Source of the DNA: Rotaria sordida | Lineage: Eukaryota | Assembly (NCBI GenBank): GCA_905250005.1 | Contig: CAJNOH010000668.1 | Location: 1 to 64,000 of the forward strand | Length of the DNA stretch: 64,000 nucleotides | Reading direction: 5' to 3' | Shown here: one piece after another, positions 7,467-53,630 of the stretch | How the letters are laid out: every line of letters starts with the position of its first letter | Position numbering within the stretch: position 1 is the first letter of the stretch | Notes under the pieces: generated by a model | What the model saw: the letters and a program-made list of their open reading frames with translations, nothing else | Databases searched by the model: none | Told to the model about the DNA's origin: nothing | Position numbers and translations under genes: made by a program

Positions 7467-7484
7467 CCCACACCCACACCCACA
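7467..7484. repeat. Single C-strand telomeric block (cccacacccacacccaca), intronic/intergenic within the PARP4-like locus.
   Basis: Read directly in the sequence. Confidence 0.8.
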
Positions 7485-24335: not shown

Positions 24336-25286
24336 ATGGCATCATCTATTATTTCATCATTTGCTTTTGCTGAACAACAAATAACCATATATTTGGGCAT
24401 ATTCATTCTCTTCGGAGGTGTCCTTGGTGGACTTCTCAATATCACTGTTTTTCTGAGTCTCCAAACGTTTCGACAGAGTTCATGTGCATTTTATTTAACT
24501 GTGATGTCAGTTGTCAACATTGGTCAATTGATTACAGGTCTGCTCAGTCGTATAATGATCACTGGATTCGGCATTGACTGGACCCAAATGTCTCTGTTCT
24601 ACTGTAAAATTCGCTCGTACTGCATTATAACCTCTGCACTGATCTCCTTGAGTTGTTTTTGTTTGGCAACAATTGATCAATACTGGGCCACTTGCTCTTG
24701 TCTCCGATGGCAACGGTGGAGTAATATCAAGCTAGCTCGTCAACTGTCAGCAATCACTGTTCTCATTTGGATTCTTTTCAATATTCCATATTTCATTTAT
24801 TCCAACCATATTGTGTCAGCTACAACGGGCCGAGTGACTTGTCAGATTACAAATAATGTCTTTCAACAGTTCTCAACCTATGGAATAAATGTCACTTTTA
24901 CAAGAATTTTGCCTGTCAGTATATCATTCTTGTTAGGAGTGTTGGCCTATCGCAATGTGGAACAACTTGCTTATCGAACAGTGCCGATTGTTCGACGTGA
25001 GTTAGACAAACAATTGACAGTGATGGTTCTTGTGCAAGTTGTCGTTACTTTCTTTACAATTGTTCCATATAGCATTATAAATATTCTATTAACGATTTCT
25101 AACCTCACAACAGATCCGATCATTAGAGCGGAGCTTCAGTTCATATCTACTTTGTTCATGTGCATATTTTACATGAATTTTGCGGTAAGGATACGTATAT
25201 TATGGAGTCATCTGAAAAGTGAACTTGTGTTTAGAGTCCATTCTTCATTTATTTTTGTGTGTCAGATCGATTTCGTCGACAACTGA
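24336..25286 (+). CDS. Seven-transmembrane rhodopsin-like G-protein-coupled receptor. Essentially a single exon, with a possible short 3' intron at ~25186.
   Basis: 316-aa ORF with seven hydrophobic helices. TM1 is followed by GGLLNITVFLSL, TM3 ends ...LATIDQYWA (DRY-like position), and a basic third intracellular loop reads RNVEQLAYRTVPIVRRELDKQLTVM. The spacing matches class-A GPCRs. Confidence 0.65.
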   Translation: MASSIISSFAFAEQQITIYLGIFILFGGVLGGLLNITVFLSLQTFRQSSCAFYLTVMSVVNIGQLITGLLSRIMITGFGIDWTQMSLFYCKIRSYCIITSALISLSCFCLATIDQYWATCSCLRWQRWSNIKLARQLSAITVLIWILFNIPYFIYSNHIVSATTGRVTCQITNNVFQQFSTYGINVTFTRILPVSISFLLGVLAYRNVEQLAYRTVPIVRRELDKQLTVMVLVQVVVTFFTIVPYSIINILLTISNLTTDPIIRAELQFISTLFMCIFYMNFAVRIRILWSHLKSELVFRVHSSFIFVCQIDFVDN

Positions 25287-27129
25287 GATATGTGGTCTTC
25301 GAAATTCATCTCCAAAAATATCGACGACAAGAAATTGTTATAAATCAAGGCACCCCAGAAAATGTGTGAACGTCGCTTAGAAAATCTTTCATAACAATTG
25401 AAAACAGCACAGTTGTTTTTTTGTTGTAATTGTATTAAAGAAATTTATTTGTAATTTGTCGTCTATCAGTGATCAATAAATATCTCTATGTTCGACTTAG
25501 AAGAAAAGTAGACTTTAGATTTCTTCTGTAATCTCTGTAACAAAAAAATTTTTACGCTCCGACAAAAATCTTCGATTATCAACAGAAATATACATGCAAA
25601 CATGTTTTATATGAGAGAATTTACGACGTGAAACTCTGAACATCCTAGGTGTCTTCGGGTAAAATGATGTTCAAGCGCTGCTTTCTTACATTTACCTAAA
25701 AACAATGCCTACAAATGGCCATCCAATATGCGTTTTTTTTTTCTGCTGAAGGTGTGTAAAAACAGCGTTTATCAAGATCCTGTAATTTAAGGGAACCTGA
25801 ATATTTTTGTCTCATTTACAATACGTCCAAGCTAGACAACAATGACCAGACAAATTGTCTAAAAATGTTCGGTCGCTAGTAATCTAACTGATGTTGTGTA
25901 AAGATGTTCAACTATTTCTGTTTCTTTAGATTGTTCGGTGGATTGAAAACCAATCTCTTCAGGTACTCGTTTTGTCAAAAGAGATATAATAGAAGCGGTT
26001 GAGGTTTTTTTTAAGGCAAACTATATGAAAATGTTTAGGTTATGTAAATTTACACTATAATCGACACTCATATGGCCTTTACACAAAGAGAAAAATATAT
26101 TCTGTTTTTTTCCTTTCTACGTTCAAGTGTAGCAGCAAGCCTTGACTGTACTATACGTTGAGATCAATTATAGCTCTCTTTTCAGTAAATATGACACAAT
26201 CTCACAGTGTCAAATAAAAATCATATGTAAACAATTCCAGGTTTCATCTTTTCTGAGTTAAGAACAAGTTAAGAAAATGATAAAAGATCTCACTGTTTAA
26301 GATCTATGTGTCAATCATATCTCGGTCCCAGTACGCCATGAGCCCGAGTCCTTTTGGGTTTTTCTTAGTCTCAGTGAGCCCTACTTGTAGCCAAAATATG
26401 GAGTCAAACGGCGTTGGACAGTTGGATATGTTTTCTCGTTAACCAGTTCGAGCAATGAGAACATCTCGAACTGATTTATCGACTAACACAATACGACGAA
26501 CGGCTTTTGACTTTAAGTATGTAAATCTTTTTCACTTCTTCTATTATTCAAAGAAAATCTTGAAATCATAAAACTATTTTGTCACCTTAAATTTTTATGA
26601 AATAACCAATGTTTTTACTTTGTCCACTTTTAGATGATTATTTGACCAATAGTCGAAACGCGTCGTATGGTGCTTTGAATCTATTCGATGAAAACTCACC
26701 ATCACACCTTCACCCTTACCATAAAAGACAAGTGTTGAAAGAAATAGCCAATTTGGGGTTGAAGACATGTTTTTTCCTTCAACATGCTTCTTCGAAACTT
26801 TCAGCGTGCCCTAACAACTTTTTAGAGAAATGAGAACGATTTACCGTTCAATGCATCATCATAGAGACAAAATATGAGAGAATCAGCATTAAAAGCCTAT
26901 AATTTGATCTAGTCAAAAAATATATACTCCTATTTTAGTCAATGAGGATTAACGCCAAAAACATCAACGAGACTTGTAAAATAAAGACATAGAAAGAGTA
27001 TAAAATGCTCATTTTATTTAATGCGAAAAACATATTATAAACTTGTTTTATTTTAAAGAAAAATTGTTTGAAAAGTGCTGCATTATTTTTGCAAAATATT
27101 GCATTAATACCAAGTCAATTATGAACATT

Positions 27130-30100
27130 ATCGGTACACAAACAAGACTTCTGTTCAACTCTTCCGCTCACCTCCAACCAAACATTACTACTCGCTCTTA
27201 TCATCGAACTCCACATCACAAACAAACATCCACCAAGACACTTCTGTTCGTCCCTTTTGCTCACTTTGAACCATACCTTGCCACTCCCTCTCGTCATCGC
27301 ATACAACGTCGCAAAGGAACATTCATTATCAGACTTCTGTTCACCTAGTTTGCCAACTTCCAACCAAACGCTGCCACTCACTCTCATCATCGGGCATTAC
27401 ATCATAAATGCACATGCATAATGATACTTTTGTTCACCTTTTTTGCTCATTTCCAACTAAACGTTGTCACTCGCTCTCATTATCTAATATTACACCACAA
27501 AGGAACATTCATAATGATATTTGTGTTCACCTATTTTACTCAATTCAAACCCAACGTTGTCACTTCCACTCATCATCAAACATCACATCACAATCAAACA
27601 TTGATAAGCAGAATTCTATTCACCTTTTTTGCTCACATTGAGTCAAACATTCCCAATCACTCTCATCATCGTACATCATATCACCAACAAACATTCATAA
27701 TGATACTTTTGTTTACCTCTTTTGCTCATTTCGAACCAAACATTGCCGTTCACTTTCATCATCGAACATCACACTACAAATGAATATTACTCATAACACT
27801 TCAGTTCGCCTCTTTTGCTCACTTCGAACCAAACATTGCCATTCACTCTCATGATCGAACATCACATTACAAACGAATATTACTCATAAGACTTCAGTTC
27901 ACCTCTTTTGCTTATTTCGAACCAAACATTCCTATTCACTCTCATCATGGACCATCACATCACAATCGAATATTCATAACCAGAACTCTTTTCCCCTCTT
28001 TTACTCAATTCGACGCAAATGTTGCCACTCAGTGTCATCAACGAACATCACAGCACAACCGAACATTCATTATCAGACTTCTGTTCACCTCTTTTGCTTA
28101 CTTCAAGCCAAACGTTGCCACTCACTCTTATCATCTAACATCGCCTCACAAACGAACATTCATAAGCAGAATTCAGTTCACCTCATTTGCTCACTTCAAA
28201 CCAAACGTCACCGCTCTCTCTCATCATCGAACATCACACCATAAACGGACATTCTTCACCAGGCTTTTGTTCACCTCTTTTCCTCACTTCAAACCAAATG
28301 TTGCCACTCATTCTCATTATCGAACACCACACTACAAACGAACATTACTCAAGATACTTCCGTTCACCTCTTTTGCTCACTTAGAATCAAACCTTGTCAC
28401 TCTCTCTCATCATCGAACACCACATCACAAACGAACATTCATTATCAGAATTCTGTTCAACTAGTTTGGTCACTTGAAACCGAACGTTGTCACTCACTCT
28501 CATCATCGAACATTACATCATAAATGAACATTCATAATGATACTTCTGTCCATCTCTTTTGTTCACTTTGAATCAAACCTTGCCATTCACTCATCATGGA
28601 ACATCACATTGCAAATGAACATCCATAAAAAGGCTTCTGTTCACCTAGTTTGTTCACTTCGAATTGAACGTTGTCACTCATTCTCATCATCAAACATTAC
28701 ATCTTAAACGAACATTCATAATGATACTTTTGTTCACCTCTTTTGCTCATTTCGAACCAAACGTTGGCACTCACTCATCATCGAATATCACATCACAAAC
28801 GAACATTCAGCAATATATTTCTGTTCACCTCTTTTGCTCACTTCGAACTAAATATTGCCATTCACTCTCATCATGGAACATCACATCACAAACGAACATT
28901 CAAAAGCAGAATTTTCTTCATCTGTTTTGCTCACTTTGAACCAAACGTTGCCATTCACTGTCATCATCGAGCATCACATCGCAAACAGACATGCATAAGC
29001 AGAATTCTGTTCACCTCTTTTGCTCACTTCGAACTAAACATTGCCATCCACTCTCATCATCGAACATCACATCACAAACGATCATGCAGAAGCAGAATTC
29101 TGTTTACCTCTTTTGCTTACTTCGAGCCAAATGTTGCCACTCACTCATCATCGAATATCACATCAGAAACGAACATTCCTCAAGATACTTCTGTTCACCT
29201 AGTTTGCTCATTGCGAACCAAAGGTTGCTATTCACTCTCATCATTGAACGTCACATCACAATCGAACATTCATTATCAGAATTTTGTTCGCCTCTTTTAC
29301 TCACTCCGAACGAAACGTTTTCACTCACTCTCATCATCGAACATCACGTCACAAACGAACATTCATTATCAGATTTCTGTTCACCCCTTTTGCTCAGCCT
29401 GAACCAAACTTTGCCAGTCACTCTCATCATCGAATATCACATCATAACCAGACATTCATCACCAGACTTCTGTTCACTTCTTTTTCTCACTTCGAACCAA
29501 ATGTTGCCACTCATTGTCATCATCAAACATCACATCACAAACGAACATTCATTATCAGATTTCGGTTCACCTCTTTTACTCACTGCAAACCAAACATTGC
29601 CACTCACTCTCGTCAACGAACAAGACACCAGAAACGAAGATTCATCAATATACTTTTGTTCACTTCTTTTGCTCATTTCGAACCAAATGTTGCCACTCGC
29701 TGTGATCATCGAACATCACATCATAAACAAACATTCATGAACATACTGCTGTTCACCTTTTTTTACTCACTTCGAACCGAACGTTGTCACTCAATCTCAT
29801 CATCGAACATCACATCGCAAACGAACATTCCTTACAATACTTCTCTTCACTTCTCTTGCTCATTTCGAACCAAACATTGTCACTCACTCGCATCATCGAA
29901 AATCACGCCACAAACGAATATTACTCAAGATACTTGTATTCACCTAATTTGCTCACTTTGAATCATAGATTGCCACTCACTCATCATGTAATATCACATC
30001 ACAAACGAATATCCATAAAAAGACTTCTGTTCGCCTCTTTTGCTTGCTTCGAATGAAACCTTGCCAGTCACTCATCATCGAGCATCACATCACAAACGAA

Positions 30101-30295
30101 TATTACTCATAAGGCTTTCGCTCATCTCTTTCGCTTACTTCGAACTAAACGTTGCCATTCACTTTCAGCATCGAATATCACATCACAAACGAACATCCAT
30201 AAAAAGACTTCTGTTCACCTCTGTTGCTCAATTCGAATCAAACATTGCTACTCACTCACATCATCGAACAGTGCATCACAAAGGATTTTAACAAC
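27130..30295 (+). repeat. Tandem array of a 93-bp monomer, ~34 copies. Approximate consensus: TTCTGTTCACCTCTTTTGCTCACTTCGAACCAAACGTTGCCACTCACTCTCATCATCGAACATCACATCACAAACGAACATTCATAATCAGAC. Copies are 80-90% identical with no length variation.
   Basis: Successive occurrences of the ttcacct core fall at 27342, 27435, 27528, 27621, 27714, 27807..., exactly 93 bp apart. The array continues to ~30295. Overlapping + strand ORFs in all three frames (219, 249, 225 aa) are artefacts of the stop-poor CA-rich composition. The minus strand is closed. Confidence 0.9.
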
Positions 30296-30299
30296 ATGT

Positions 30300-32050
30300 T
30301 GCATCAACTATCCATGCATCAATGAGAACAACTTTGAAGTGAAATGGTCGCTATAGTTAGAGGAGTATATGTCATGTGGCAAACGGATAACTATGAATAA
30401 TATCATATCCGTTTATTTTCACGAAGCTGAAAGAAATAATGGAAAAATTTTTGTTAGTTTATAATCACATATCAAATGAATAGTTATAACGCTTTTTGAA
30501 ACTCTCGGAATGCTTCTATTCATCTATGTGTCCTACTTACTTTGAAGGTTGAACCAATTCATTGACCGAATGACTTACAGTAAATGAATAATTATCAAAT
30601 TTAGAATTTCATTCACGTATTTACTACCATCTAGGTGGAAGATGTTGCATTGGTACGAAAGAAAACAATCACAAGTCAAATGATTGATTATCATTATTAT
30701 TGTGTTCATCAATAGTGTTCATTGCGAATCGAATATTACCTCTCAGTACTGTTGATCAAATATCGTATGATTAGTGAATAAGCATCATCATGGTTTTGTT
30801 CATTTATCTTAGCCACTTTGAAATAAAAGATTCGAGTTTTGTTGATTTCAAAATGATGTCATGATATACCAACATTTATTCGATAAGAAATTTGTTCGGT
30901 TATCTTCGTACATGCCTAATTAAATATTATAGATCAATGTACTAGTCGAGGGTGACAAAATCTATAGATCAACATAACGTTCCCAATGACGTTGTTCACC
31001 TATCTGGTTCTTTTATAACATATGGAACCATGCAAGATTGTCTAGTGATCCAAGATTGCATAAAAGCTGAATCATTAGGATCACTCTTGGACCAATTCTT
31101 CTATTCAATAGTATGATATTTGTTAAAATAGAATCTTGACGAATATGCACTTTTGAACGATGATGTGGCAAACGTTTGATCATAATTCTTCCAACGACTT
31201 TGTTCATCTATCTCACTCTCTAAGCACATGTGCTTTCTGACCTATCAACTTGATCAACGATCACATGAAAAGAAAATCATACGTATTTTGGATGGTATAT
31301 TCACCTATTTTACTTACTATGATGCAAATTTTTCGATGGATGCGTGCGTTCTACGATTACATCACAAATAAATCGTTATTAGCCATGTGAAACTTGTTAA
31401 ATAATTTTGTTCATCTATTGTATGCCCATAAAAGCAGGAATTCAAGAAAGATAAATTTATCGAGAGTCATTAGTCAAATGAATGATCATCATCTCCTATA
31501 GGTTCTGTGCATGTATTTTGTTTACATCAGAGTGAATATTTTGATTCAGTGTTTCAACAGTATTCGCATGATAATTGCGTGATTTTAATAAAACCAATGA
31601 GACTGTTCGTCTATTTTCTTTAATATCAAGCAAAACTATGGAGTCGCTAAACACAAAGAAGCTAATATATCCAATGAATCGGTCGAATCATTGTTCTGTT
31701 CGCTTATTTTGTTTTTTACTTTAATGCAAATCTTTGCAGTTCCTTCTCAAATTTAAGATCATATGAAACATGAATGATCATAACGACATTGGCCGCATTT
31801 GGTGCAAGTATTCTATCCAAAAATCTTGTTCACGAAGTAGAGAATCGATAGAGTCTATGTAGCAATTGAAATTTTGTTGCAATTGAATAACCTCTAGGAC
31901 GATAGTATTCGCTTATCTTGACTTTTCGAAGCATATTATGAAGGTTTTGAAACGATTATAGTTAGCATAAGAACCGAATTATTAGGACCACCGTTAACAT
32001 CCTATTCATTTATTTTTCTTTCTGTAAACGAAAGCTTTATTACAGCCAAC
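30300..32050 (+). repeat. Decayed relatives of the 93-bp repeat with irregular 90-200 bp spacing. They share the (t)tgttca(c/t)ctat(t)t and catcatc/gaatgatcat words.
   Basis: Recurring ttgttcatttatct (30794), gttgttcacctatctgg (30990), ctttgttcatctatctc (31198), tattcacctatttta (31300), ttttgttcatctattg (31408), ctgttcgtctatttt (31604), ttctgttcgcttatttt (31694). Confidence 0.55.
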
Positions 32051-35000
32051 TGCCGAAAAATCATACGATAGATGAATACTGATAACAAAAGTTCTGTACA
32101 TGTATTTCTATCTGTTAGGAGTAACTACTTCAAAATGTTGTATTAATCAATGGTCACATAAAGCATGAATAAGTTTGAGGAAGCTTCTTGCGCACTGTAA
32201 AAAAAAAGATAGAATATTGAATCTTTGCACTAACTGCAACTTTTCATAAATCCTTTTAAGGTTTATGTCGATGTCCTAAACCCTTTAATAGAATAGAATA
32301 GATATCCTAAACCCTACAGGGATATAATAAGGATATCATAAACCCTTTCGTAAACCCTTTTGGAAGGTTTATTATTCTACGCTTTTTAATGACAATGTAT
32401 TTGCCGGGTGGAACAAATCTTTGATATTCTAAAGATAAAAGTTACATGTGTTCAAAATAATTTCAAAATAAACTTGACAGCTTCTTTTCTGAGGGACCAT
32501 ATTGATAATGTTCAAGTATCTATCAAGCAACACAAAAATCTCAGTCTTTCGAATAGAACTGTACATGTCGAATTCTCGAACCGATTTCAAATAGAGAGTA
32601 TCTTACATTTGCAATGTTCGCAAATAGAAAAATTTCAGTTTCACTAATTATAAGGGTATAGTCTGATGATATCCATTAAAGACTGTAAGAAACATGTAAA
32701 CATGCTGCTCTTAAGATTCATCATGTAATACCATGATTATTCTCGATCCAGTTCAGTTTGACCCTAAAAATACATATATATCTGTATATAATTGATGATC
32801 TCTTTCTATACCCGATTCATTCATTCATTCATGCTGCTTTCTATATCCTGTGTTCAATATTTTTAACACAAGTTTTAACACTTTCACTCGTTATATATAT
32901 AAATCCTGTTTTATTTAAATTTCAGGCGCAAAGAAATTTTATTAGTTCAGAGCTAGATACTAAAAATACCTGACGAGCTGGATTTTCAGCATCAAGAAAT
33001 CATATTGGTCAAGGCTTAGATAAAATACCTCTGAATGGCGGATAGAAGAAAGGAAATTGGTTCGACAGCTTTCTCTAGAGAACCAAGTGGCATATATTCA
33101 TAGCCACTAATTGACATAAGCATCTTGTGTGGTTCTTCAGCCATATCTGAGAAGCGCTGAATACATTGATGAATCACTACTTTACCTGTGGCCATCTTGA
33201 ATAGTGAAGGAGTTTAAACAACCGCTGGAGAATGGAAGATCTGAAAATCCAAATAAAGAAAGCAATCACTATTATTGCCGCTAAAATATGATATATTCCG
33301 ATTTTTCTTGAATGATCTGAGAACCCAATGTCCTAGCGGTCGAATATTTCCACTGTTGGATGAGGCAAACTGAGCGAAATAGATTCAGTGCGTTCTATTA
33401 GTTTCTAGGAAACTGATTTCCTGCAAAGATATAGGCAACAGATTTAAAATGCGTATGATGACCGTAATGGGCTTAATGGCCATAATGGATATAATCAGCA
33501 TAATAACCGTGTTGCCGCAGACTCCCGCAGTGCATACAAAGAGGGCCTCATCCTTAATTAAGTGAACGCTCTCTGTGTACATAAAGACGCCCTCACTCTC
33601 ACCCAGAGACGTGCCCTCTCGTCCTCACTCTTAGCAGAAATAGATGCCATTCGTGTACATAGCAGAGATCGAATATTAATTTGTTTATTCGAGTAATTTA
33701 GCGACTTTTCTCGTATTGCGAGAATATAATGAGCATATTTTTTGTGATTGGCTTACGCACCACGCTATCAAGAATGATAAAAATTAATAAGAGAAAGAAC
33801 AGATTTTTCCTCTCTTTCTCTGTTCATATTGGTGCTCTTTATTTTTTCTTACTCTTAATCCTTTCATATTTTAGTAAAGAGTTATTCAAAAAATGGTGGC
33901 TGGCATTTAAAAAAAAATCCGACATTAGTATCTCTAATGTGATCCCTCGCAAGTAAAATTAATTGATTTTGTCTAATTTAAAGCCTCATGGAAAAGAACG
34001 CTTATGCCATTAGAAATCAGCTCGTTGAGCTCTACAAATTGGTATCATTTCGATTTAAAATGACGCGTCATACTTGGGAACCTTCCCTCGTTAGAATTTT
34101 ATTTGACTTATACTTAATTAAGTAATAAAATAATTTAAATGAGCAATAATGAAATTGAGCAATAATTATATAGAATGAGCAATAATTATATAGAATGAGC
34201 AATAATTTATTTAAATTAAAGGTAAATTTTATTTAGTAGAGTAGATGTTATATAAAAAGGGTGTTATAGTGTGACTCGCTTATATATCTTTTTTTTCTTT
34301 CTTCTCTTCTACGATGTCATACAGATGACAAGTACGACACATTCATGTTGGAGTTGACTTTAAAATATTTCAAAATCAACTCCGATATATACATATATCT
34401 TCTGTTTTCTTTCTCTCTTCTTTCCTTTCTCTCACTTGGATATTTCTCTTCTCTTGGTGCTGTTCAGGTATATTTTCCTTCTTTGTCATGTTTTCTTTCT
34501 AGGATGCTCGATTTTTTCCTAGCTCATTCATATATATAATTACCATTTCTACAATAAAGTAGTAGTTCAGTATTGATGTGTTAGATCAATCAGCCGTTAA
34601 CAAAGGGCAATATGAATTCGTTTACAAAATAAAATATGAAAAGAAAAGAAGGCAGACTATCTAAAGCAAAAAAAGCTTTATTCGCACAATAATATACAAT
34701 TTTTTCATTTTTCTTTTTTTTTAATTGTAAATAGTTTTTTATTTCTCTAATTCGTATAGAATAATGTAGTTTTTCTTTGTTTTATTGCTAAAATATGAAA
34801 TTACTACTGCTACTTAATGAATTAATTATTGTACATTTAATAATATAAAAGTAGTCAAATAAAGTTTTGTTTATTGCTCAAAATTTTTTGCTAAATCATA
34901 TTTTAATTACTGTCCATTCTGGTATTTTTATTGCTCAAATAAATACAAGACATTTTATTTTTCTATCAGACGTCAAACTCTGGCATGAGAAGAAATTATC

Positions 35001-35574
35001 TTAATAGGGCAGGCTGAACACAATTAGTGTAGTAGTATTTACCTTTAAAGAATATCTAAGCACTGTCGTAATCGAAAAAAATAGGCAAATACACTGGCTG
35101 TAAATATAAGCAAATGTAAAATAACTGATGTAAATTGCGACGAGCGCACGTTTTTATCTCTTCTTTATTGTTGTGATTACTGATGCATAGAGCTACTTTC
35201 TTTCGCTTTACTAAAAAAAAATCGAGCTGATCGGTCGACAAACGAAAGTATCAATAGCGAACGATTTTTTTTCTTGTCATGCTCGTCAAGAAGGTTATCA
35301 GTAATTAATATATGAAGAGAAAAAAAGGATGTGATATCGACTAGCTCTATTACTTTAACGAAACACGTGCTGGTAGACAAATATGAAAGTCTGTTGTCAA
35401 CTTATTTTCATCCTTCGTCTTAAATGCAACGATGGTGTGTTGTTATCACCTTCTGTACAAAGAGAGGATGAGTAATACCGTCGTGCATTCTCACATCATG
35501 ACGAGAAAAACACAGGATTAGTCTCATAAAAGAGTCTTTAATCCCAATACTGGGCTATTACGACAGAATTTTAA

Positions 35575-36160
35575 CTAAGAGCAAAACAACTGATTCCATG
35601 ATTCTGTGGTTCTGTTGATTCCAATAATTTCAAAATGATTCTTGCCACCGGAATCAATCATTTTCGTCTTGTAATTTCTACTTTTTTCTTTATATAATCA
35701 GTGAAAGAAATTTATTTCCATGATGCTCTTTATGGCAGACTTTTCGTTTTGTGGTCTCCGCACTATTCGCTTCATTAGTATTTAATATATTTGTTGTCAT
35801 CAGTGACTGGTGCTATATTCTGTGTCACTCAAACGAAAATAAAGAGTGATTCTTGTGATATCCTGAGGGAATGACTCAAATGGGAACAGCTGATTCTGAC
35901 GGTCAAAAACATTTTGCAATCACTCAGAATTATCGAATTAACAGTTTCTCCCTTATTGCCTACTGATGAAACTCTTGACTGAGAACAGTTTATATAAGAG
36001 TAAGCCAACCACCATCAACTGAATTCTCTAGTTTACATCGAATTCAAGTGACTCCAGGTAATTTTAAATGACTTCAAGTGTTTCGCACTGATTCTAAGTA
36101 CTTTCATTGATTCTGAATGATTTCATGTGATTCAAATGCCACAGAATCAGTTGTTTCTTC
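35575..36160. repeat. Possible MITE or foldback element (~580 bp) with imperfect terminal inverted repeats (aacaactgattc...tgtgg / ccacagaatcagttgtt) and internal gattctg / tgattc word repeats.
   Basis: Left 35586-35616: aaacaactgattccatgattctgtggttctg. Right 36131-36152: ccacagaatcagttgtttcttc, the reverse complement of aacaactgattctgtgg. No ORF. Confidence 0.3.
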
Positions 36161-37181
36161 CTTGACAAAAATACTAAAAAGAACATGGTAATATTTGGAA
36201 ATAATATCAATTATGACAATTTGTAAAATTAAAAATATTACCTGGTTCAGTATAAAATCGTTTTGATATTATAGTAGACGAATGAGAGAGTATCGAACTC
36301 AAGAATATATCTGCTTGTACTATCAATTAGTTTTATGAATGTGGATTTTATTCTTATCTTCACTCGTACTCTATGTTTTCGTCTTTCCTACTATTGATAT
36401 TCTAGAAGAAATGTAAGCAAAAGAAATATTATTTTTTCTGACATAGTGTGCATTAAGACTATTTGAAATTCAAAAGCTATCACAATCGAGGCAATCAATG
36501 AATTGTTCTTTATGTTATCAAGTAGAGCTTTTCTTCATATTATTCTTTATTATCAAAATATCTCATGACCGTATTCAGTCGTTTTTTGTTTTTGAAAAGA
36601 TACAATTTGTCTCGGAGAAAATTATTTTTTTTTTTTTTAAATATATGCACATTTGATTATATAGAGAACAATGCATATGATGAATAGAAAGAATAAGGAG
36701 ACGAGTAAAATTGATTCTTCGGACAACACGCTGTTTGTTATAGTTATGAGTGTGAATGATGGAGAAGTATTAATAACAAAGTCGCGTTTAATTTTATGTT
36801 TAATTACAATCTGCTCCATGTCTACAATACACTATAATATTCCTTTCAAATATGTTTAAACATGAACGCAAATCTAGATGTTAAAACTTACCATTGGATT
36901 TATAAAGTTGATAGAAGCGAAATATTACAATTATATGCATTTACATTTGTTGTTCTAGCATCTGAACTTCAAATGACTACTCGTGATTGAGTACATTATT
37001 TTTATTCTATGTCGTAGTTATCGTGTGATCATTTCAATCAGTGATTCGAATATGCACGAATTTGAAATTTCGTTAACATATTACCTCCAATATATTGTCC
37101 CTGTAAGTATAATCTGAAACAACATTTGTGCGTTCATTCATTAGGTCTTATGATGAACTGGAGAGTTCGAACAACTATACA

Positions 37182-37222
37182 GGGTGTAGGTGTGGATTCC
37201 TCTATTTCTATGGACACCCACA
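37182..37222. repeat. Inverted telomeric-repeat pair: gggtgtaggtgtgg ... cacccaca.
   Basis: Read directly in the sequence. Confidence 0.75.
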
Positions 37223-39099
37223 ATGATCTCAAAGTGTTATTACAAACTTGTTAGTGTTGATATTTTATACATCTACGTTTTCGAGATGTTAATAGCGTTA
37301 TCAAGCTCTCTGGTTCAATGGTGTCTGAATCTGTTTGTGACAGCGTCTTTGAGAAGTATACGATATCCTTTCTCATCTTTTTCGCCTATCAACAATGACA
37401 ATTTTTTATTGAAAGACATACTATAAGCTCAGAAGACTATTTGCTCTTATTTCTCTTATAAAAGAATTTCGTATTTGTCTATTATTAACAAAAATTTCAA
37501 TTGGTTTGATCGATTTTGATTTTTCGTTTGAAGATCGGTGATTCAAAAACCACGATTTTACTCATGCCTATTCTTTACATGTGAAAGAAAATATTATAAC
37601 CTGCATCATTTTTTTATTTACGTCGTATGCGACAGTCAATATACTGACACGAATCTTTTTTCAAGCAGTTGTCCTGTACACAGGCGAATGGATATGATAA
37701 GAACGAAAAAAAAAGGAATGCGTTACTTCAGTTTGCTCTTTTATTTTGTATTTGTATCTTCATTGTTTCTCATCAGTATTTTGCTCTTTACGGTTCTCAT
37801 TATATTCTATTTTTCCTTTTTAATTTCTCTCTTAATATTCCTTCAAGCATGAATTGATAGTCAGCGTATTAGTATCGATGATACGGAGTGTAACCCTTGA
37901 TTTTGAATATAGTTGTTCGTTTAAACATATATCTATTTCTTTCTCTTATCGGGTAATAAAAAGAAGTCGAATCATTATACGATCCCTCGTGCCATTTACA
38001 TAACAATGCAATAATAAATACACACTAATGATTCACAGGTGAGTAAAATAGATTAAGTATAATACATATTGTTGTCGTCATCTTTGATTACATTGTTAGA
38101 CATCGAAAAGAATGAAAAATTGATAATTTCAAATCTTATCATAATGCATAGTTAAATGAGTACGAATAGCTAGTAGAATCCAATAAGCATGTATTGATGA
38201 GAGTGTGGATGCTCATGATACAAATTTTTGCCTAAAAATCAAGTTAAAATTATAGTCTAAACTATACATGATGTGAAATATCAGCAAACAAACAGTTGAC
38301 GATGTTCATATCAAGTATCGACTAAACAAGAATATTCTTCCGATGACTATATCAAAAACTTACTTTGAGAAAGAGTCAGCTCATGGAACTGAATCATATT
38401 CGAGAAGTACCAAGATTAAATACTACATCACTGAGTTTTTTTATAGATCTCGAAAAATGATTGTAACTTACTTATTTTTTATAAATCAGTACGCATGTAT
38501 TCGTTGCATGATCATATTTTTAGACATTTTTCAGAAAACAAAATCTCACAGACGTTACTATTATGCATGGGTATAGTCAAGTGAAAAATATCTTTCTCGA
38601 TTATTAAAAATATGATTTATAGATATTCTGTCAACCTCACAATCTGAGAAACGCATACTATATCGGAGACAATATTTGAATGAATTAGAATTTCATACGC
38701 TAGACAATATCGATTCATTATCATGCTTAACTTTTAGAACGATAAACTACTATGTATTATTATTACATTTCGATCTTTATGGGTGTCAAATATTAGCCAC
38801 TTGTGTCTTAATAGAAATTTGTTTTTGACAAAAATATTTTGATTGAACATGTAATGTTAAATAGAAGAAAGAAATAAGAACTATCTAGAAGACAATTAGT
38901 AATTTCCAAATGTAGCAACTGTTTAATGTCTTTTTGAAAAGCTTACTCTATTGAAGCTCGTACAGACGAAATTGCATCTATGTTTCAGATATACTTATTC
39001 TATCATTCACGTTACAAAACACGTAATATAGTATCGCAATTCTATTATTGGTTAATATCAATAGTTTCGTTAATCATCTATTGATTTAAATATTGTGAA

Positions 39100-40773
39100 A
39101 TGATATATTTTGTAATATCCATAATTATTGGAATTATTTCGTATATAATCTACAAGAGATACAAAAACTCATTGAAGTCTCCTTCTACCACTACTCAGTA
39201 TGATCATGCCATAATTCTTGGAGGGAGCATTGGAGGAATCGTTACTGCAGCTTATTTATCTAAATATTTTAAACGAATAACTATTATTGAATCAGATGAT
39301 GTACTAAATGATATATTTATGAAATCTACACCTAGCGAAATATTAGATTATCGATGTCGACTTGAAAATCCAACATCATTAGGACGTTCAGGTGTTAGTC
39401 AAATATATCAATTACATGGACTTCAGGCTGAAGGTTATAAAATATTACAAGAATTATTTACTAATATAAAAGACAAATTATTCAATGAATATGGTGTTCG
39501 TACTTATTCAACAAAAAACGAGATCAAAGTAGCAATTGATGGTGTAGTCTTAAATCAATATTTAACCAAAGATATTGATTGGTTAGGTATTGATCGTTTT
39601 ACATTAGAAATAATTTTAAGAAAAGAATTCTGTTTGAAATTCAATAATCAAATTGAATGGAAATGTAATAGTAGAGTAATGAAATTAATTGTTAATCAAT
39701 CATCAAATATTGTTAAAGGTGTAAAATATCGATCAAAGAAAAATATCGATTCATCATCATTATTTGATATCTATGGAGATTTTATTATTGATTGTACTGG
39801 TCACAATACATCATCATCTAAATGGTTAAAAGAGAGTTTGAATTTAATTGTACCAACTGTACAAATACATTTTGGTGGTGGTGCTGTTACATTTATTGGT
39901 GAAAGATTTCGAACCGGTAATCTAACATTCGATTCAGCGGCTGTAATTGGTGTCATTGCTAATCCTCCGAAGAAAAATACTAGTTTTATTCTAAGTCCAG
40001 TGCGACAAATCAATACAACTGATCAAAATTCATTAGGAATATTAACAGCATGTGCTATAACCTGTGTTAATTCCGAATATCCACCTAATGATTCATATGA
40101 AAACTTATTAGAATGGACAAAAGAAAATCTAGATCCAGAATATTTTACGGTTATAAAATCAATAAAAATTTCTAGTCCAATAATTCCAAATCGTCATGCA
40201 ATTGATGATCGAAAGTATGTCGAAGTACTCGGTAAAAAATGGCCTCAAAATTATGTATTAATAGGTGATGCTATGTGTACATTTAATCCACAATATGCAC
40301 AAGGTATGACACATGCATGTAGACAGGCAAGAGAATTAGGAAAAATCTTTGGCGAAAATTGTCATAAATTAAAAGATATTTCTCATATTTTTAATCGTCG
40401 TGCTTCAAAAATTACTGAAGAATGTTGGCTTGCTTCGACTGTAAATGATTGGAAAATACCAACATTAAAAGTAATTGAAACAAATAAAAATGGTCAAGTG
40501 AAAATTTATCAAAGAGGTTATCATTCGGATATAACTAACAATGATGAACCACGAACACCTTTAAAAATACGATTTATGCAATGGTATAATTATTGGTTTT
40601 TTCAATGTGCATCGAAATCTGAACAATTAGCTACAGATTTCCTATTTGTTGTCAATCAATCGAGCAATCCATTAATATTAATGAAACCTACAACTTTTTT
40701 TAGAGTTATTCGTATGGCATTCATGAATTATTTAAAGGAGAAAGGTCTTTTTGGTAGAAGATCGACTTCATAG
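39100..40773 (+). CDS. FAD-dependent monooxygenase (class A flavoprotein hydroxylase / halogenase-like fold) with an N-terminal transmembrane anchor. Single exon, 557 aa.
   Basis: N-terminal helix MIYFVISIIIGIISYIIY. FAD-binding Rossmann GxGxxG: AIILGGSIGGIVTAAYLS. Second FAD motif YVLIGDAMCTFNPQYAQGMTHA (the GDAxH/NPxxGxGmn consensus of PHBH-family monooxygenases and flavin halogenases). The ORF is intronless, unlike neighbouring metazoan-type genes, and is bounded by telomeric-repeat islands at 37182-37222 and 41761-41822. Confidence 0.8.
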   Translation: MIYFVISIIIGIISYIIYKRYKNSLKSPSTTTQYDHAIILGGSIGGIVTAAYLSKYFKRITIIESDDVLNDIFMKSTPSEILDYRCRLENPTSLGRSGVSQIYQLHGLQAEGYKILQELFTNIKDKLFNEYGVRTYSTKNEIKVAIDGVVLNQYLTKDIDWLGIDRFTLEIILRKEFCLKFNNQIEWKCNSRVMKLIVNQSSNIVKGVKYRSKKNIDSSSLFDIYGDFIIDCTGHNTSSSKWLKESLNLIVPTVQIHFGGGAVTFIGERFRTGNLTFDSAAVIGVIANPPKKNTSFILSPVRQINTTDQNSLGILTACAITCVNSEYPPNDSYENLLEWTKENLDPEYFTVIKSIKISSPIIPNRHAIDDRKYVEVLGKKWPQNYVLIGDAMCTFNPQYAQGMTHACRQARELGKIFGENCHKLKDISHIFNRRASKITEECWLASTVNDWKIPTLKVIETNKNGQVKIYQRGYHSDITNNDEPRTPLKIRFMQWYNYWFFQCASKSEQLATDFLFVVNQSSNPLILMKPTTFFRVIRMAFMNYLKEKGLFGRRSTS

Positions 40774-41760
40774 AATTCTCTAAAACATACTTCTTCATAC
40801 AGTCAAACAATAAATTGTTCTTTTTTCTTTTGTGTTCTGTCAAGATTGATATGTTTCTACATGTGAAGGGGATGGGGAAGAAAAGAAAGCAATAAAGCAT
40901 ATCTTTAATCTGTGCAAGAAAATCTTTCTTCATCTTTATTTTTCGAACAATGAATCATTTTTGAAAGTTGTGATATTGACTTATGTCTTTTATTCAGTTT
41001 CGCAGTGTCACGTTATCTAAATACACTCGTAAGTGTTGGTAGTCTTCTATTAGTAACTATTTCGATCGCATTCTGGCGAACATTTGATGTCTGTTGAGAA
41101 CTTGCAGGAAACTCGGATCTTTAGTTGTGATACAAGTTTAAGAGTTATGAGTATTATATGATTTCTAATTCAATTTCAAGTGAAATTGGCAAGATTTACA
41201 CGGAAGAAATTGACTAGAGGGATAAAATTGTTTTCTTGTTATAAGAAACAGTGAAGTCGCTGAAATCGAATAACCATGGATGAACGAGCAAGTGCTTCTT
41301 GATGTTGGATTTCAGAACACTCCTACCCACCGCTGCTCATATGACATTGTCTATTTTGTTTTTTTTCTCTTTCTAGACACTCCTTGATAATCTGTGATAA
41401 ACAACTTGAGTAAAGCGTATGTAACATATGAGATATGGGTATCACTAATATATACTGCGACATATGAAGGAACTTCCTGGATTCACAATGTGTCAAAATT
41501 TATATTTTCACATTTTTATGTTCGATGACTAGTGCATCTTATATGTTTTTCAGACAAGTCATCTGAGAAATGTATAGGATAGAACTTATCAGGTTTAAAA
41601 TTTTCGATCTCGAAGAACTAGATGAGATCTTGTCAAATTTTGAGGTATGTTTAGATTTCCACAAACAGCCAATTTCCAAAATTACTATAAAATCCTATAC
41701 AATACAGAGACTAATCCATAGCAGAAATACAGAAATTTACTAGAAAGTGCAGAAAGGGGG

Positions 41761-41822
41761 ATGTAGGTGTGGGCATGGATGCGTTGTGTAGATAGTATCA
41801 TTGATTCACCCACACCTACATA
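41761..41822. repeat. Inverted telomeric-repeat pair: atgtaggtgtgggcatggatg ... cacccacacctacat.
   Basis: Read directly in the sequence. Confidence 0.8.
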
Positions 41823-41889
41823 TAACTATATGCAGGTCCCGCGCGAAGGTCCCAGGATTGGAAGGGGTGCAATGGGTCCTGAGGCAGCT

Positions 41890-42500
41890 AAGCTTGAGCG
41901 AAGCAAAAATTTTTTCAGTGGCGTAGCCAAGGGGAAAGAGGATCGGTCCCTTTCCAAGAAAAATTTCCTGATGGAGTACAGAGTTCAACTTTCGCGAAGC
42001 GAAAATTTTTTTTTACTATGATGGTCCCCCTTGGAACCCTGGTTCCTCCTCTTAGAAAACTTCTGGCTACGCATCTGATTTTTTTTCGCATTAGATCTGA
42101 TATTAATGTTTCTCTTGCAACCTAAAATGTAACAATTTCTCGCAAAGCAAAAGCTTTTTGCAACCTTCTTAAAAAACTCGACTTTCTCGGGCAAATTTTC
42201 AAGAAGACAATTCATGTCCAATGTAAGAAAATTTTTCAACAATTCGGCCGGCGAAGGCGGCCACGCTGGTGATGATTGTTCTCGATTAGGTCTTTCAAAG
42301 GGAAAATCGACTAAAGTTGGAAGTTTTTCTAAGTTAACTTTGGTTACGCAACTGTTATTTTTTGCGAAGCGAAAACTTTTTTCAGACTTATGAAAAACTC
42401 GTCTTTTGCTTATTTTTTTCGAAAGGAAAGAGTGTTGCGATAAGTCGTAACAATTTTGCCGCCAAAGACGGCCACCTAGTGATGATTGCTTGAAAATAAA
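41890..42500. repeat. Complex repeat of roughly 2-3 tandem ~220-bp units. Each contains (g)cgaagcgaaaa(n)tttttt, ...aaaaactcg(a/t)ct(t)tt... and g(c)cggc(g/c)aa(g/a)(g/a)cggccac(g)ctrgtgatgattg(t/c)t motifs. It also carries an inverted gcgtagcca...tggctacgc pair. The minus-strand ORF 41985-42509 is probably spurious.
   Basis: 42243-42285 ggccggcgaaggcggccacgctggtgatgattgttc vs 42453-42490 ttgccgccaaagacggccacctagtgatgattgcttg. gcgaagcgaaaa at 41990, 42364 and 41898 (variant). 41926 gcgtagccaagg vs 42058 ctggctacgc. Confidence 0.5.
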
Positions 42501-42884
42501 GCTGCTCACAAGGTAGAAAACCGTAAAATTGTCATAAAAATAGAAAAATCATAGACATTTTTAGGCTGAATACGCTCATATGATTATTCCTTCGCGAAGA
42601 GACAAATTTTAACATCTCAGAATTTTCTAGAAAAACCATCGTTTTACACTGGGTTTCGAGGAAAAAAAACCATCTAATTTCTTCAACTTGCCATAGAACT
42701 TCATGTTTTTCACCGATATAACAACTATAGTTTACAATTATTCGGGAAAGGTCATCCCCTAACTCCCTCTCTACTCAGAATCCTTTTGGGAGATGTCTGA
42801 AAAACCTCTAACAGGGAAGATATTTTAAAAGTTAAAAAAAATTCATCCACTTTGCTGGCTAATAATAAATAATTTTCAATTATT

Positions 42885-43650
42885 GTGGGGGTGTACACCC
42901 TCCTACACCCCTCCCCACTTTCGCGGGTGCTGGGTACAAGATAATCATATTCTCTTGTACCAAGATCTTGAATCAGATCTTGAGTACAGATATGGAAGAT
43001 CTTGGGTAAAGATTCATAAGATCTTAGGTGTGGATTCATAAGATCTTGGATACATATTAAGATAAAACGTGTTGCATGAGGCGTGATTTGGGACACAATG
43101 TATAATACATTTTTGAAAGCGTCGTTCGAACCTATCAAATAGTGCATTCATTATTTTTTTTCTATAAAACCATGTTATGACATTTTTTCAATTTAGTTTA
43201 ATTTTAATTATTCCTATCCCAAATAACTGAAGCAAGTCAGATCTTAGAATCTGCCTGACCTTGAGATAGTTCGATCTTCATCAGACTGCTTCAAGGTAGT
43301 CCTCTCTCAATCATCGATCGAGATCAGCATGTTCTCGAATGATCAACACTAGAGAAATAGTTTTAAAAAACAAACTATATTGAAAATGTATGTTTTGTAT
43401 GTTCAATCACGTTGTTTCTGTATGGCTCTGTATGCATTAAAAAACGGCGAATGACTAGTCAACATGTAAACACTAATGATGTCGCTCTTTTACTCAAGTT
43501 CTTGTGAGAAGACAATAGTAAACGATGTCTTTTCTATGATCTTGACAAGATCTTAAGTACAGATTTATCCGATACAACCAAGATATTCACATACAAATTA
43601 TCTTTTCAAGATCTTATGAAGATCTTGCTTACAAGATGTTCGACTAGGGA
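42885..43650. repeat. Element bounded by clusters of the palindromic word AAGATCTTG. Clusters lie at 42956-43065 (6 copies) and 43541-43640 (5 copies). The element begins at a zero-spacer inverted telomeric junction GGGTGTACACCC.
   Basis: caagatcttgaatcagatcttgagtac...gaagatcttgggtaaagattcataagatcttaggtgtggattcataagatcttgga, then ...gatcttgacaagatcttaagtac...caagatcttatgaagatcttgcttacaagatg. 42889-42900 gggtgtacaccc is a perfect 12-bp palindrome. Possibly a DNA-transposon remnant. The minus ORF 42752-43147 is probably not real. Confidence 0.35.
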
Positions 43651-47300: not shown

Positions 47301-47927
47301 GGTATTGTCGAGGAAATGCATATTGACGCTATCACACCACATTGTCTGACCACTGGTTATGGACAGAGTAAATGGGTGGCAGAGAAACTTATGAGAAAAG
47401 CTAGCTGTTTTGGTCTACCAGTTGTCATCTATCGGCTTGGCTCAATGTGCGCTAGCGTGAATAGTGGTGCCTGTAATCCACTCGATCTTCATACAATATT
47501 CATCATTGCCATATTGAAGACAGGTTCTTATCCGACCGAAGCGCTCAGCATGAGGCTCGACACTTTACCAGTGAATTTCGCTGCTAGCAATATCGTTCGT
47601 CTGAGTCTCGTTCGACCTGATGTGTATGGAAATGTCTATCATGTTGTTCATCCTGATGGTGGAGTGACATTTCAGAATATCGTTACAAGTGCGAAATTGT
47701 ATGGTGTAAAAGTAAACGATGTTCCTTTCGAACAATGGCGATCAACGATGCGAGGCCATTCATTTGAATCAGCCGACGAGTTGCTATTCGAGTTGATTTT
47801 CGGAAAACGATTAATATTATCGGCCAAACAATTTTACAGTATTGTATCTCCACTCAACATTCCGGCTATGGACAACGACTATACAAATAAATGGTTAGCA
47901 TTTATAATGCAAAATGTTCGACATTGA
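44325..47927 (+). CDS. NRPS-like carboxylic-acid/acyl reductase: N-terminal ZZ-type zinc finger, adenylation (AMP-binding, ANL), thiolation (PCP), and thioester reductase (R) domain. Two exons (44325-44988, 45184-47927; intron 44989-45183), ~1135 aa.
   Basis: ZZ: YCDVCKRNFDHGTFRYNCIVCPDYDQCKECTATMCPPHPHSL. A-domain cores: A3 IIYTSGSSGFPKGVMIS, A5 EDGYGITECGG, A7 FFRTGDIVEL, A8 IDRKKNFFKLSNGQFVSPEYLQ, A10 LLTSSLKPCRPK. T domain 4'-PP site: NFLATGGNSLAAVRLSRMV. R domain: VFVTGTTGFVGGFLLFEML (TGxTGFLG NAD(P) motif) and GYGQSKWVAEKL (YxxxK). Intron: donor ACAG|gtagga at 44988/44989, acceptor ttgttgtag|AC at 45183/45184, phase-consistent (…HTTT-D-TNSNE…). ORF 45144's MKITLIV start is therefore not a real start. 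Confidence 0.9.
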
Positions 47928-48251: not shown

Positions 48252-48614
48252 TAGGGGTAGGGTGGAGTGCGGTTGTGGTTGCGGGTGTGGATATCGGTGT
48301 GTGGGTGTGGATGTGGATGAAGGAAGTACCTATACCCACACCCACACCTACCCATACACATCCACGCCCACACCCACATGCACACCCACACCCCACACCC
48401 AGTGTGGATATGGGATGTAGGTGTGAGGTAGAACAAAATCAACCAACTCAGGTACATACTTACAGCGACAGCGCCAACCACACCATAAATATTCCTAATA
48501 TCCAAATTCAAGTTTAAGTCAATGCGACATGATTGCCATCTTGAGGGTGAGTGTGGATGTGGGTGGATGGGTGTACGATTGTTTTCAACAACACCCATAA
48601 TCACCCACACCCGC
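48252..48614. repeat. Largest telomeric-repeat island with the block order G, C, G ... G, C. It sits immediately 3' of the A-T-R gene. The overlapping ORFs (48100-48396, 48215-48610, 48224-48517) are artefacts.
   Basis: gtaggggtagggtggagtgcggttgtggttgcgggtgtggatatcggtgtgtgggtgtggatgtgg / cccacacccacacctacccatacacatccacgcccacacccacatgcacacccacaccccacaccc / gtgtggatatgggatgtaggtgtgaggt / gggtgagtgtggatgtgggtggatgggtg / cacccataatcacccacacccgc. Confidence 0.9.
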
Positions 48615-53539: not shown

Positions 53540-53630
53540 GGGGTGTGAGTGTGAGGATAGTTCTTCTATTCATCCACACTCGCGCTCGCTTCAACCCGCA
53601 CTCGAAAAACCTACACCCACACACCCACAC
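53540..53630. repeat. Inverted telomeric-repeat pair 3' of the ART-TPR gene: gggtgtgagtgtgagg ... catccacactcgcgctcgcttcaacccgcactcg...cctacacccacacacccacac.
   Basis: Read directly in the sequence. Confidence 0.8.

Follow-up and report, generated by a model that had tools for sequence, protein, structure and literature searches.

Classical animal satellites, such as those of Meloidogyne, Tribolium, and bivalves, are characterized by concerted evolution, by the "library" model, and by conserved boxes that lie beside variable segments. Helitron/HINE-type and foldback elements contain central tandem-repeat regions that are able to seed satellites. Within the rotifers, tandem repeats account for 0.84% of the genome of Adineta vaga, and some of them carry N4-methylcytosine (PMC8885841); this was the only published chromatin context found for bdelloid tandem repeats. 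In the monogonont Brachionus asplanchnoidis, satellite DNA is reported to drive genome-size variation (PMC8447722). Interstitial (TGTGGG)n telomeric repeats mark subtelomere-like regions in bdelloids (PMC7943196, PMC8494291). A search of the literature for a described bdelloid satellite of the 93-bp kind found none.

The array examined here lies in a 64,000-nucleotide stretch of the Rotaria sordida genome (contig CAJNOH010000668.1, positions 1 to 64,000), referred to below as the window. An ORF next to the array has 100% identity to a protein of R. sordida, in line with a bdelloid source. It is very probably a non-coding satellite array, with a monomer family of 92-96 bp that is found in R. 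sordida, Rotaria socialis, and probably bdelloid metagenome lineages. The 93-bp family is an ordinary, previously undescribed satellite family. As in the classical animal satellites, its monomers of ~100 bp are arranged head to tail, most of them carry species-diagnostic substitutions, variant monomer types are shared among lineages, arrays hold anywhere between 3 and more than 130 copies, and monomers at the edges of the window array are more diverged than interior ones (rho 0.51, p 0.002). It differs from those satellites in the small size of the window copy (3.1 kb), in its position among genes, and in its strong decay (76% pairwise identity), and in that the Rotaria host is an ancient asexual.

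The tandem repeats of A. vaga are comparable to the Rotaria arrays as the same kind of feature in the same animal class (PMC8885841). The B. asplanchnoidis repeat is likewise a rotifer satellite, with a copy number that varies between individuals, but it belongs to a different rotifer class and, as described in PMC8447722, forms large genomic elements of highly abundant satellite repeats, whereas the Rotaria arrays are on the kilobase scale. An asymmetric unique flank beside a tandem array, together with inverted array blocks in relatives, recalls the Helitron/HINE and foldback elements, but no termini, hairpin, or Rep/helicase were seen at the window array, and the flanks lie in synteny with a host gene. 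The array shares its neighborhood with the telomeric repeats, and its strand is C-rich and G-poor like theirs, but the 93-bp monomer contains neither a hexamer periodicity nor the telomeric hexamer. Origin from telomeric hexamers was rejected on the missing hexamer periodicity. Interstitial (CCCACA)n tracts occur in the window at 22.3 kb, 41.8 kb, and some nine further sites, and 22 telomeric hexamer dimers were counted (0.02 expected). For the window copy, these gene-dense, telomere-repeat-rich surroundings speak weakly against a centromeric satellite.

Array anatomy and flanks

The features of the locus are listed in Table 1. TRF returned a single array (27145-30282, period 93, 33.8 copies, score 3090), in agreement with the count of about 34 copies in the preliminary description, and no other large tandem array was found in the 64-kb window. 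A profile built from the monomer gave 34 plus-strand nhmmer matches within the array, with E-values of 1e-18 to 1e-26 per monomer. Twenty-seven of the 34 monomers are 93 bp long, one is 94 bp, the last is truncated to 81 bp, and five (m16, m18, m22, m31, and m32) are 91 bp and carry an identical 2-bp (CT) deletion. A spacing of exactly 93 bp with no indels, as originally described, is thus confined to the first 15 monomers, the 91- and 94-bp units breaking the register. The identity of 80-90% noted earlier fits the comparison of monomers with their consensus (80-93%), but between monomers the mean is only 76% (range 66-91%). Division of the monomer into 3 x 31 bp proved to be arithmetic only: 29 of 93 positions match at lag 31, which does not stand out from other lags, and a 31-bp sub-repeat was rejected. 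Pairwise comparison of the 34 monomers revealed neither a higher-order repeat nor a drop in identity with distance; their relationships are star-like, at ~14% from the consensus. The plus strand of the array is G-poor (G 9.8%, C 29.3%, A 30.3%, T 30.6%), and the GC skew of -0.42 to -0.58 is restricted to the array.

Table 1. Coordinates of the satellite locus in the window
Feature	Position	Strand	Evidence
Probable degenerate partial monomer; sharp 5' edge of array	27085..27144	+	Alignment of the L003 array reaches 27085
Satellite array, 34 head-to-tail monomers	27145..30285	+	TRF, monomer alignment, nhmmer profile
Decayed flank, old degenerate monomers	30286..32190	+	Profile matches, box-A recurrence, autocorrelation, flank homology
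Lineage-specific insert, five ~31-bp units, core TCCTAAACCCTTT	32191..32395	.	Direct repeats; breaks up conserved flank
Distal flank end common to L002	32396..32580	+	L002 5376-5561, 62.8% identity
Relic of ADP-ribosyltransferase-family (ART) gene, N-terminal 57 aa only	33016..33195	-	tblastx/tblastn

Two boxes of the monomer, box A (ACTTCTGTTCACCTCTTT) and box B (AACATCACATCACAAACGAACATT), recur in what follows. The probable partial monomer at the 5' edge contains GAACAT and CACAAAC, like box B, and the monomer profile found no further match upstream of it. On the 3' side, the preliminary description of a decayed flank was borne out: degenerate monomers extend over ~1.9 kb and repeat about every 100 bp (~96-104 bp, in part as ~205-bp dimers). 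The strongest autocorrelation lags in this flank are 196, 208, 306, 404, and 96; from 30797 to 32016 the plus strand has nine occurrences of the box-A motif, spaced roughly 100 or 200 bp apart; and the monomer profile has plus-strand matches at 30700-30787 (E 5e-4) and 31299-31372 (E 0.01). Array monomers of other species can also be aligned to the window flank, which has a GC content of 0.32 and a GC skew near 0. The insert beyond it is missing in L002, where the alignment skips from window position 32190 to 32396. In the second R. sordida assembly (RSOR410), L035 3067-13601 corresponds to window 32396-42932 at 98%. The ART relic is 45-51% identical to its full-length counterparts in L025 and L006 (tblastx, tblastn), is oriented toward the array, and serves as a syntenic marker of the locus. 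The best protein match of a neighboring GPCR is 64% identical. In a paralogous halogenase region (L036), no array was found within 10 kb upstream.

Related arrays and concerted evolution

The comparison set included 30 metagenome loci (L001-L030) together with L035 (R. sordida), L037 and L038 (R. socialis), L039, and L040. R. socialis has the array-plus-flank locus as well (45 x 93 bp), as do many metagenome contigs, in which copy numbers run from 3 to more than 46; within a single group of related lineages from metagenomes, the orthologous locus has 3 to 22. An array in metagenome contig L040 spans at least 11.7 kb, is 94% homogeneous, and has a consensus identical to that of the window at 87 of 93 positions, which weakens the premise that a multi-kilobase array is remarkable in a bdelloid. 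The flank is colinear with that of the window in L002, L003, L025, L037, and L039. Its identity to the window is 65.8% over 3.4 kb in L002 (array end included), 60% in R. socialis L037, and 54-58% in L003, L025, L018, L027, and L039. Past the flank, the same ART gene is present in L005/L013, L011/L028, L006, and L025. Upstream of the array, the window, L002, and L037 have no detectable similarity to one another, and orthology is therefore drawn from the downstream side alone. These alignments show that an array was already present at the locus, upstream of the ART gene, in the ancestor that R. sordida and R. socialis share; its oldest units persist in the degenerate 3' flank, which can be aligned one-to-one between species.

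Mean monomer identity is 0.764 within R. sordida and 0.677 within R. socialis, against 0.650 between the two species. The nearest neighbor of a monomer is conspecific in 33/33 and 41/44 cases, respectively, and 12 diagnostic columns separate the monomers of the two species. This grouping of monomers by species is concerted evolution. In each lineage, the array may have been re-amplified and homogenized from one variant monomer, and the probable route is unequal exchange between sister chromatids or homologues together with gene conversion, acting mainly in the array interior. Since the time of the common ancestor, the window monomers have diverged independently.

Among the window monomers, GC-to-AT transitions are 2.8 times commoner than AT-to-GC transitions, and the substitution spectrum implies a stationary composition of GC 0.29 with a skew of -0.16 (CI -0.34 to 0.03). 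These AT-biased, nearly strand-symmetric substitutions are wearing away the GC content along with the G-poor skew, and the monomers are drifting toward the AT content of the genome. That mutation is still strand-biased and thereby causes the skew is not supported, C>T being about as frequent as G>A and the confidence interval of the equilibrium skew including 0. A test for CpG hypermutability in the monomers was not significant (0.158 versus 0.116, p=0.064).

Across the consensus monomers of 10 lineages, boxes A and B do not vary, while the monomer center does and the flanks are near saturation. Positions that are conserved between lineages also vary less inside the window array (0.098 versus 0.228, p=1.5e-4), which hints at constraint, although ascertainment or inherited ancestral variants could also explain it. 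The number of G residues per monomer ranges from 2 to 19 across lineages. C/G transversions make up half of the differences fixed between R. sordida and R. socialis, and in every such case it is R. socialis that carries the G. Neither the lineage-specific G content nor these transversions would be expected from simple neutral decay. Two features are left unexplained, namely the two conserved boxes and a strand-specific depletion of G that differs between lineages.

Alternative explanations

The chance that the array encodes, or recently encoded, a tandem-repeat protein of 31-residue His/Ser/Thr-rich units is vanishingly small. Its appeal comes from the period of 93 (3 x 31), shared by R. sordida, R. 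socialis, L032, L039, and L040, from the reported forward ORFs of up to 249 aa (ORFs of 219, 249, and 225 aa do exist), from an annotated 169-aa protein on the R. socialis array (CAF3471721.1), and from array proteins predicted by metagenome gene callers. The three forward frames are open in a relative sense only, as they contain 13, 28, and 16 stops and none is open along the array, and the 2-bp and 1-bp indels of the 91- and 94-bp monomers shift the frame. Substitutions among monomers have no codon-position bias (phase means 0.129/0.157/0.143, permutation p=0.69), and Fourier power at period 3 ranks 30 of 47. Homologous arrays in L001-L030 have periods of 92, 94, and 95 bp, which are not multiples of three, as well as 96 bp, and the ORFs predicted on them therefore cycle through all three frames. 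No Pfam domain was supported, apart from a "faint" zf-FCS match, and RSOR410 has no gene model over the part of the array and flank contained in L035. A coding region is effectively ruled out by the stops, the frame-shifting monomers, the lack of period-3 bias, and the non-triplet relatives, and the satellite favored in the preliminary description, strand-biased and non-coding, is upheld; the long forward ORFs exist because one G-poor 93-mer with a single stop triplet was amplified. The analysis flags the array-derived "proteins," present in public sets as 51 ORF clusters, as annotation artifacts, the GenBank R. socialis entry included. A structured RNA gene array (tRNA, 5S, snRNA, and similar) was also rejected: an Rfam search of the array gave no match at the gathering threshold or at E<=1, a tRNA search found none, and folding energies showed no excess over shuffled sequences (z-scores +1.18 and +0.40). 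That the array is collapsed, expanded, or chimeric through assembly is highly improbable, even though single-N scaffold joins occur in the array and at the flank in the second R. sordida assembly (L035 664, 2431), which also has two 90%-identical versions of one 487-bp stretch, and the assemblies differ by 4-12% in the array versus 1-2% in unique DNA. The window contains no N, and the longest exact internal repeat is 34 bp with every array 41-mer unique, so that collapse, a concern raised at the outset, is unlikely. In addition, the independent assembly has colinear arrays with identical monomer order, and homologous arrays are carried by R. socialis and many metagenomes. An apparent "5-monomer duplication" and "flank deletion" in RSOR410 were rejected, both junctions being single-N scaffold joins.

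It is very unlikely that the array and its 3' flank are the tandem-repeat interior of a mobile element (Helitron/HINE-like, foldback, or MITE-derived); the shared "locus" would then reflect copies of an element and not orthology. Consistent with such an element, the array and downstream flank are common to the window, L002, and L037 while their upstream flanks are unrelated, one monomer type occurs in differing 5' contexts (L020 versus L003; P0239), array blocks are inverted in L015 and L040, and a mariner-like transposase gene lies 1 kb past the flank in L039. Yet in a large metagenome group the flanks are homologous on both sides, at 72-83% upstream and 80-94% downstream, with the same host ART gene next after the flank; the relic of this gene is kept in the window. 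Wherever the contig is long enough, the array-plus-flank unit is always followed by this ART gene and is not found at unrelated sites; arrays without the flank do appear in other contexts. Within the 64-kb window neither the monomer nor the flank has a second copy, no transposase or Rep/helicase ORF adjoins the array, and a search for TE ORFs across 25.3-39.1 kb found none. No terminal repeats were found around the array-flank unit; Helitron-type termini are recognizable only from several copies. A functional role, compatible with a satellite origin, is also unlikely: the satellite would be a chromosomal element whose boxes and G-poor strand are kept by binding of chromatin proteins or by a G-poor non-coding or small RNA, and it might nucleate heterochromatin (4mC/H3K9me3), act as a boundary, or take part in centromere function or pairing. 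In its favor are the invariance of both boxes around a varying center, the lower variability of conserved sites inside the array as well, the retention of the array at one locus where flanks are only 54-66% identical between lineages, and the deposition of 4mC on "certain tandem repeats" by the A. vaga N4CMT (PMC8885841); the chromosome-level A. vaga paper makes no mention of centromeres or satellites. On the other hand, box A belonged to the scan pattern and the protein search favors conserved words, which introduces ascertainment bias, and some conservation of the consensus is expected anyway, since weak homogenization slows consensus change. Moreover, the arrays have decayed to 76% (R. sordida) and 68% (R. 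socialis) identity, one lineage is down to 3 copies, and RNA structure is absent. Still less probable is the specific proposal that the family is a sequence-constrained chromosomal element, defined by its invariant boxes and a lineage-specific G-poor strand arising partly through fixed C/G transversions, which are not expected from the local mutation spectrum; such an element could be a binding platform for chromatin proteins or a template for a G-poor RNA. The default reading of the satellite array is neutral or heterochromatic DNA, "no function" being a default and not a result.

Implications for bdelloid genomes

Under the default reading, the array is of little importance and adds one more satellite family. 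Bdelloids do carry satellite arrays larger than 10 kb, and, for concerted evolution in ancient asexuals, the locus offers a dated natural experiment: it has decayed in R. sordida and R. socialis, has recently been homogenized in other lineages, and varies between 3 and more than 46 copies. A role in 4mC/H3K9me3 nucleation, or at centromeres or in pairing, would matter if true, bdelloid centromeres being undescribed. Should the boxes or the G-poor strand be functional, they would open a first way into bdelloid chromatin elements that are defined by sequence.

Anatomy and non-coding character of the array

Tandem Repeats Finder identified one array, at 27145–30282 (period 93 bp, 33.8 copies, 76% matches), and no other large tandem array in the 64-kb window. 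Monomers delimited by anchored alignment and MAFFT numbered 34, in agreement with the approximately 34 copies of the preliminary description. The exact 93-bp phasing without indels proposed there did not hold: 27 monomers are 93 bp long, five are 91 bp, one is 94 bp and the final, cut one is 81 bp, and exact 93-bp slicing keeps register for the first 15 only. All five 91-bp monomers carry an identical CT deletion within CACTCTCAT. The earlier figure of 80–90% identity fits comparison with the consensus (80–93%) but not monomer pairs (mean 76.4%, range 66–91%), and the consensus has no excess of matches at a lag of 31 bp, so the suggested 3 × 31 substructure is arithmetic only. Pairwise identity among window monomers neither drops with distance nor shows higher-order periodicity; divergence is greater at the array edges than at the centre (Spearman 0.51, p = 0.002). 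The array begins abruptly on its 5' side, preceded by one degenerate partial monomer at most (27085–27144), and is free of N, its 41-mers all being unique. On the + strand G makes up 9.8% and C 29.3%, with a GC skew of −0.42 to −0.58 that is again about 0 from 30.3 kb.

Of the three open forward frames reported earlier, the ORFs exist (219, 249 and 225 aa), but the frames hold 13, 28 and 16 stops, and each ORF spans two frames because monomers of 91 and 94 bp change the reading frame. The G-poor consensus 93-mer contains one stop triplet, against about 4 expected from composition, so open frames follow from amplification of one such unit. No period-3 signal was seen in monomer variability (means of 0.129, 0.157 and 0.143 for the three phases; p = 0.69 by permutation; period 3 only 30th of 47 in Fourier power), as for a non-coding satellite. 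On the stops, the frame shifts and this lack of codon-position bias, a protein-coding array was rejected, and the strand-biased non-coding satellite preferred at the outset was borne out. A structured RNA was also rejected: the array gave no Rfam match at the gathering threshold or at E ≤ 1 and no tRNA, and on neither strand did three monomers fold more stably than shuffled sequence (z = +1.18 and +0.40).

Related arrays have been called as "proteins" in GenBank, UniRef and metagenome catalogues, including the R. socialis loci L037/L038 (CAF3471721.1, CAF4872432.1) and the predicted proteins or ORF clusters P0001–P0003 and P0238–P0286. These are annotation artefacts. One such array-derived "protein" has a faint zf-FCS Pfam match.

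Related arrays and the shared locus

Protein searches with the array ORFs led to the arrays of metagenome contigs L001 to L004 (tabulated below), and a DNA-pattern scan added 30 further contigs. Consensus periods among related arrays are 92, 93, 94, 95 and 96 bp. An exhaustive protein search yielded 51 array-derived ORF clusters, one being a GenBank R. socialis protein whose contig carries 45 monomers, most of 93 bp (68% matches). Contig L040 comprises 11.7 kb of this satellite alone, 94% homogeneous and with inverted blocks, and matches the window consensus at 87 of 93 positions. Orientation switches within one contig, as head-to-head and tail-to-tail blocks, were seen in L040 (1–11754) and L015, and in L039 the array-end junction recurs in inverted orientation (2240–2328), 2.6 kb upstream of the array there.

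The end of the window array and its 3' flank are colinear with L002 (65.8% over 3.4 kb, resuming at 32396–32580), with R. socialis (60%, E = 2e-46) and with L003, L025, L018, L027 and L039 (54–58%). Beyond the flank, an ADP-ribosyltransferase (ART)-family gene oriented towards the array was found in L025, L006, L005/L013 and L011/L028; the window relic has full-length orthologues in the corresponding position in L025, L006, L013 and L011, and R. sordida probably lost the gene by deletion. The largest metagenome group shows homology on both sides of arrays of 3, 15 or 16–22 monomers, which favours an orthologous locus rather than a mobile unit. On the upstream side, however, the window, L002 and L037 lack detectable similarity to one another, and arrays are present in other contexts (L020, L015 and L040). 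Between the metagenome contigs L013 and L011, identity is 77% in the upstream flank and 93% in the downstream one; the intervening array may separate DNA of different genealogies, as at a recombination or conversion breakpoint.

Turnover, decay and conserved boxes

Several results show that 30286 to ~32190 descends from the array's monomer family, confirming the decayed flank described earlier. The monomer profile has weak + strand matches at 30700–30787 (E = 5e-4) and 31299–31372 (E = 0.01) and four further, marginal ones; outside the array, matches in the window are confined to this flank, with none upstream or elsewhere. Box A, one of the two conserved monomer motifs, has nine + strand occurrences from 30797 to 32016, some 100 or 200 bp apart, direct-repeat families are spaced 204–208 bp apart, and the eight top autocorrelation lags are all near multiples of 100. 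Array monomers of other species also match the flank (L002, E = 2e-7; L003, E = 3e-6), whose composition is genomic (GC 0.32, without skew). At the point where the window has an insert of 31-bp units, the second R. sordida assembly, RSOR410, has a 585-bp foldback (L035 2432–3016; 274-nt arms, 92% complementary) adjoining an N, suggestive of a local hotspot for insertions or a break in the assembly.

Twelve nearly fixed diagnostic columns separate R. sordida from R. socialis monomers (e.g. T in 97% of the former, A in 93% of the latter), and the nearest neighbour of each R. sordida monomer is conspecific; homogenisation of each species' array thus postdates the species split and was followed by decay. 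Substitutions of A or T for C or G prevail in the window array (C>T, 0.122; G>A, 0.129; reverse changes, 0.04), with no significant CpG excess, and the implied equilibrium (GC 0.29; skew −0.16, CI −0.34 to 0.03) is near flank composition. Between RSOR410 and the window, unique DNA is 98–99% identical and the array only 88–97%. An apparent duplication and flank deletion in RSOR410 were not trusted, as both coincide with single-N scaffold joins.

Two boxes, ACTTCT.TTCACCTCTTT...TCACTT and ACATCA.AT...AAA.CGAACA.T, do not vary among the consensus monomers of 10 lineages. Within the window array, too, variability is lower at the sites conserved between lineages (p = 1.5e-4, scan box excluded); ascertainment bias and shared ancestral variants may be partly responsible. 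A monomer contains between 2 and 19 G, depending on the lineage. The fixed differences are enriched for C/G transversions, with C in R. sordida paired with G in R. socialis at 6/12 of them (p = 0.002 against the local spectrum), and all eight G-involving differences have G on the R. socialis side (p = 0.008). The boxes, the low within-array variability of conserved sites, the G range and the C/G differences are unexplained.

Genomic neighbourhood

The neighbourhood is a subtelomere-like, foreign-gene-rich setting. The window contains 22 dimers of the bdelloid telomeric hexamer, (TGTGGG)n = (CCCACA)n (PMC7943196, PMC8494291), against 0.02 expected. Several of these repeats form head-to-head (−,+) pairs 35–50 bp apart, with genes flanked by them. 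The halogenase-like, NRPS-like and ART-TPR genes, side by side, are foreign-looking and typical of bdelloid subtelomere-like regions; the halogenase-like ORF matches a Rotaria sordida protein at 100% identity. For the receptor ORF the database search returned no near-identical R. sordida protein, and it may be an unannotated gene or a pseudogene. About 5.2 kb of RSOR410 (L035 13601–18769) is absent from the window at ~42.8–42.9 kb, and the adjoining window segment 43630–42933 appears inverted in L039 (817–1463), upstream of the array there. Both observations indicate structural variation near 42.9 kb.

Features of the window and of related arrays
Feature	Position	Strand	Detail
Rhodopsin-family receptor ORF	24336–25286	+	nearest database relatives just 64% identical
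Insert of five 31-bp units	32191–32395		core TCCTAAACCCTTT; no counterpart in L002
ART-family gene relic	33016–33195	−	first 57 codons only, at 33195–33025
Trp-halogenase-like flavoprotein	39100–40773		
NRPS-like adenylation/thiolation/reductase enzyme	44325–47927		two ORFs, split at 45140–45144
ADP-ribosyltransferase-TPR repeat fusion (ART-TPR)	51137–53422		
Interstitial telomeric repeats (CCCACA)n	257, 1493, 7467–7484, 15206, 22265/22300, 41762/41809, 48300–48378, 48552/48604, 53610–53629, 55277–55477, 56916–56933		
Fixed C/G transversions between the window and L037 arrays	alignment columns 37, 48, 54, 58, 76, 82		
L001 array			94 bp × 46 copies; 96% matches
L002 array			units of 95 and 92 bp
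L003/L004 array			94 bp × 14 copies

A literature search found no publication describing this satellite. The array is an old, decaying, non-coding satellite of a Rotaria-wide family at a conserved locus, undescribed in the literature found, yet of a well-known kind.
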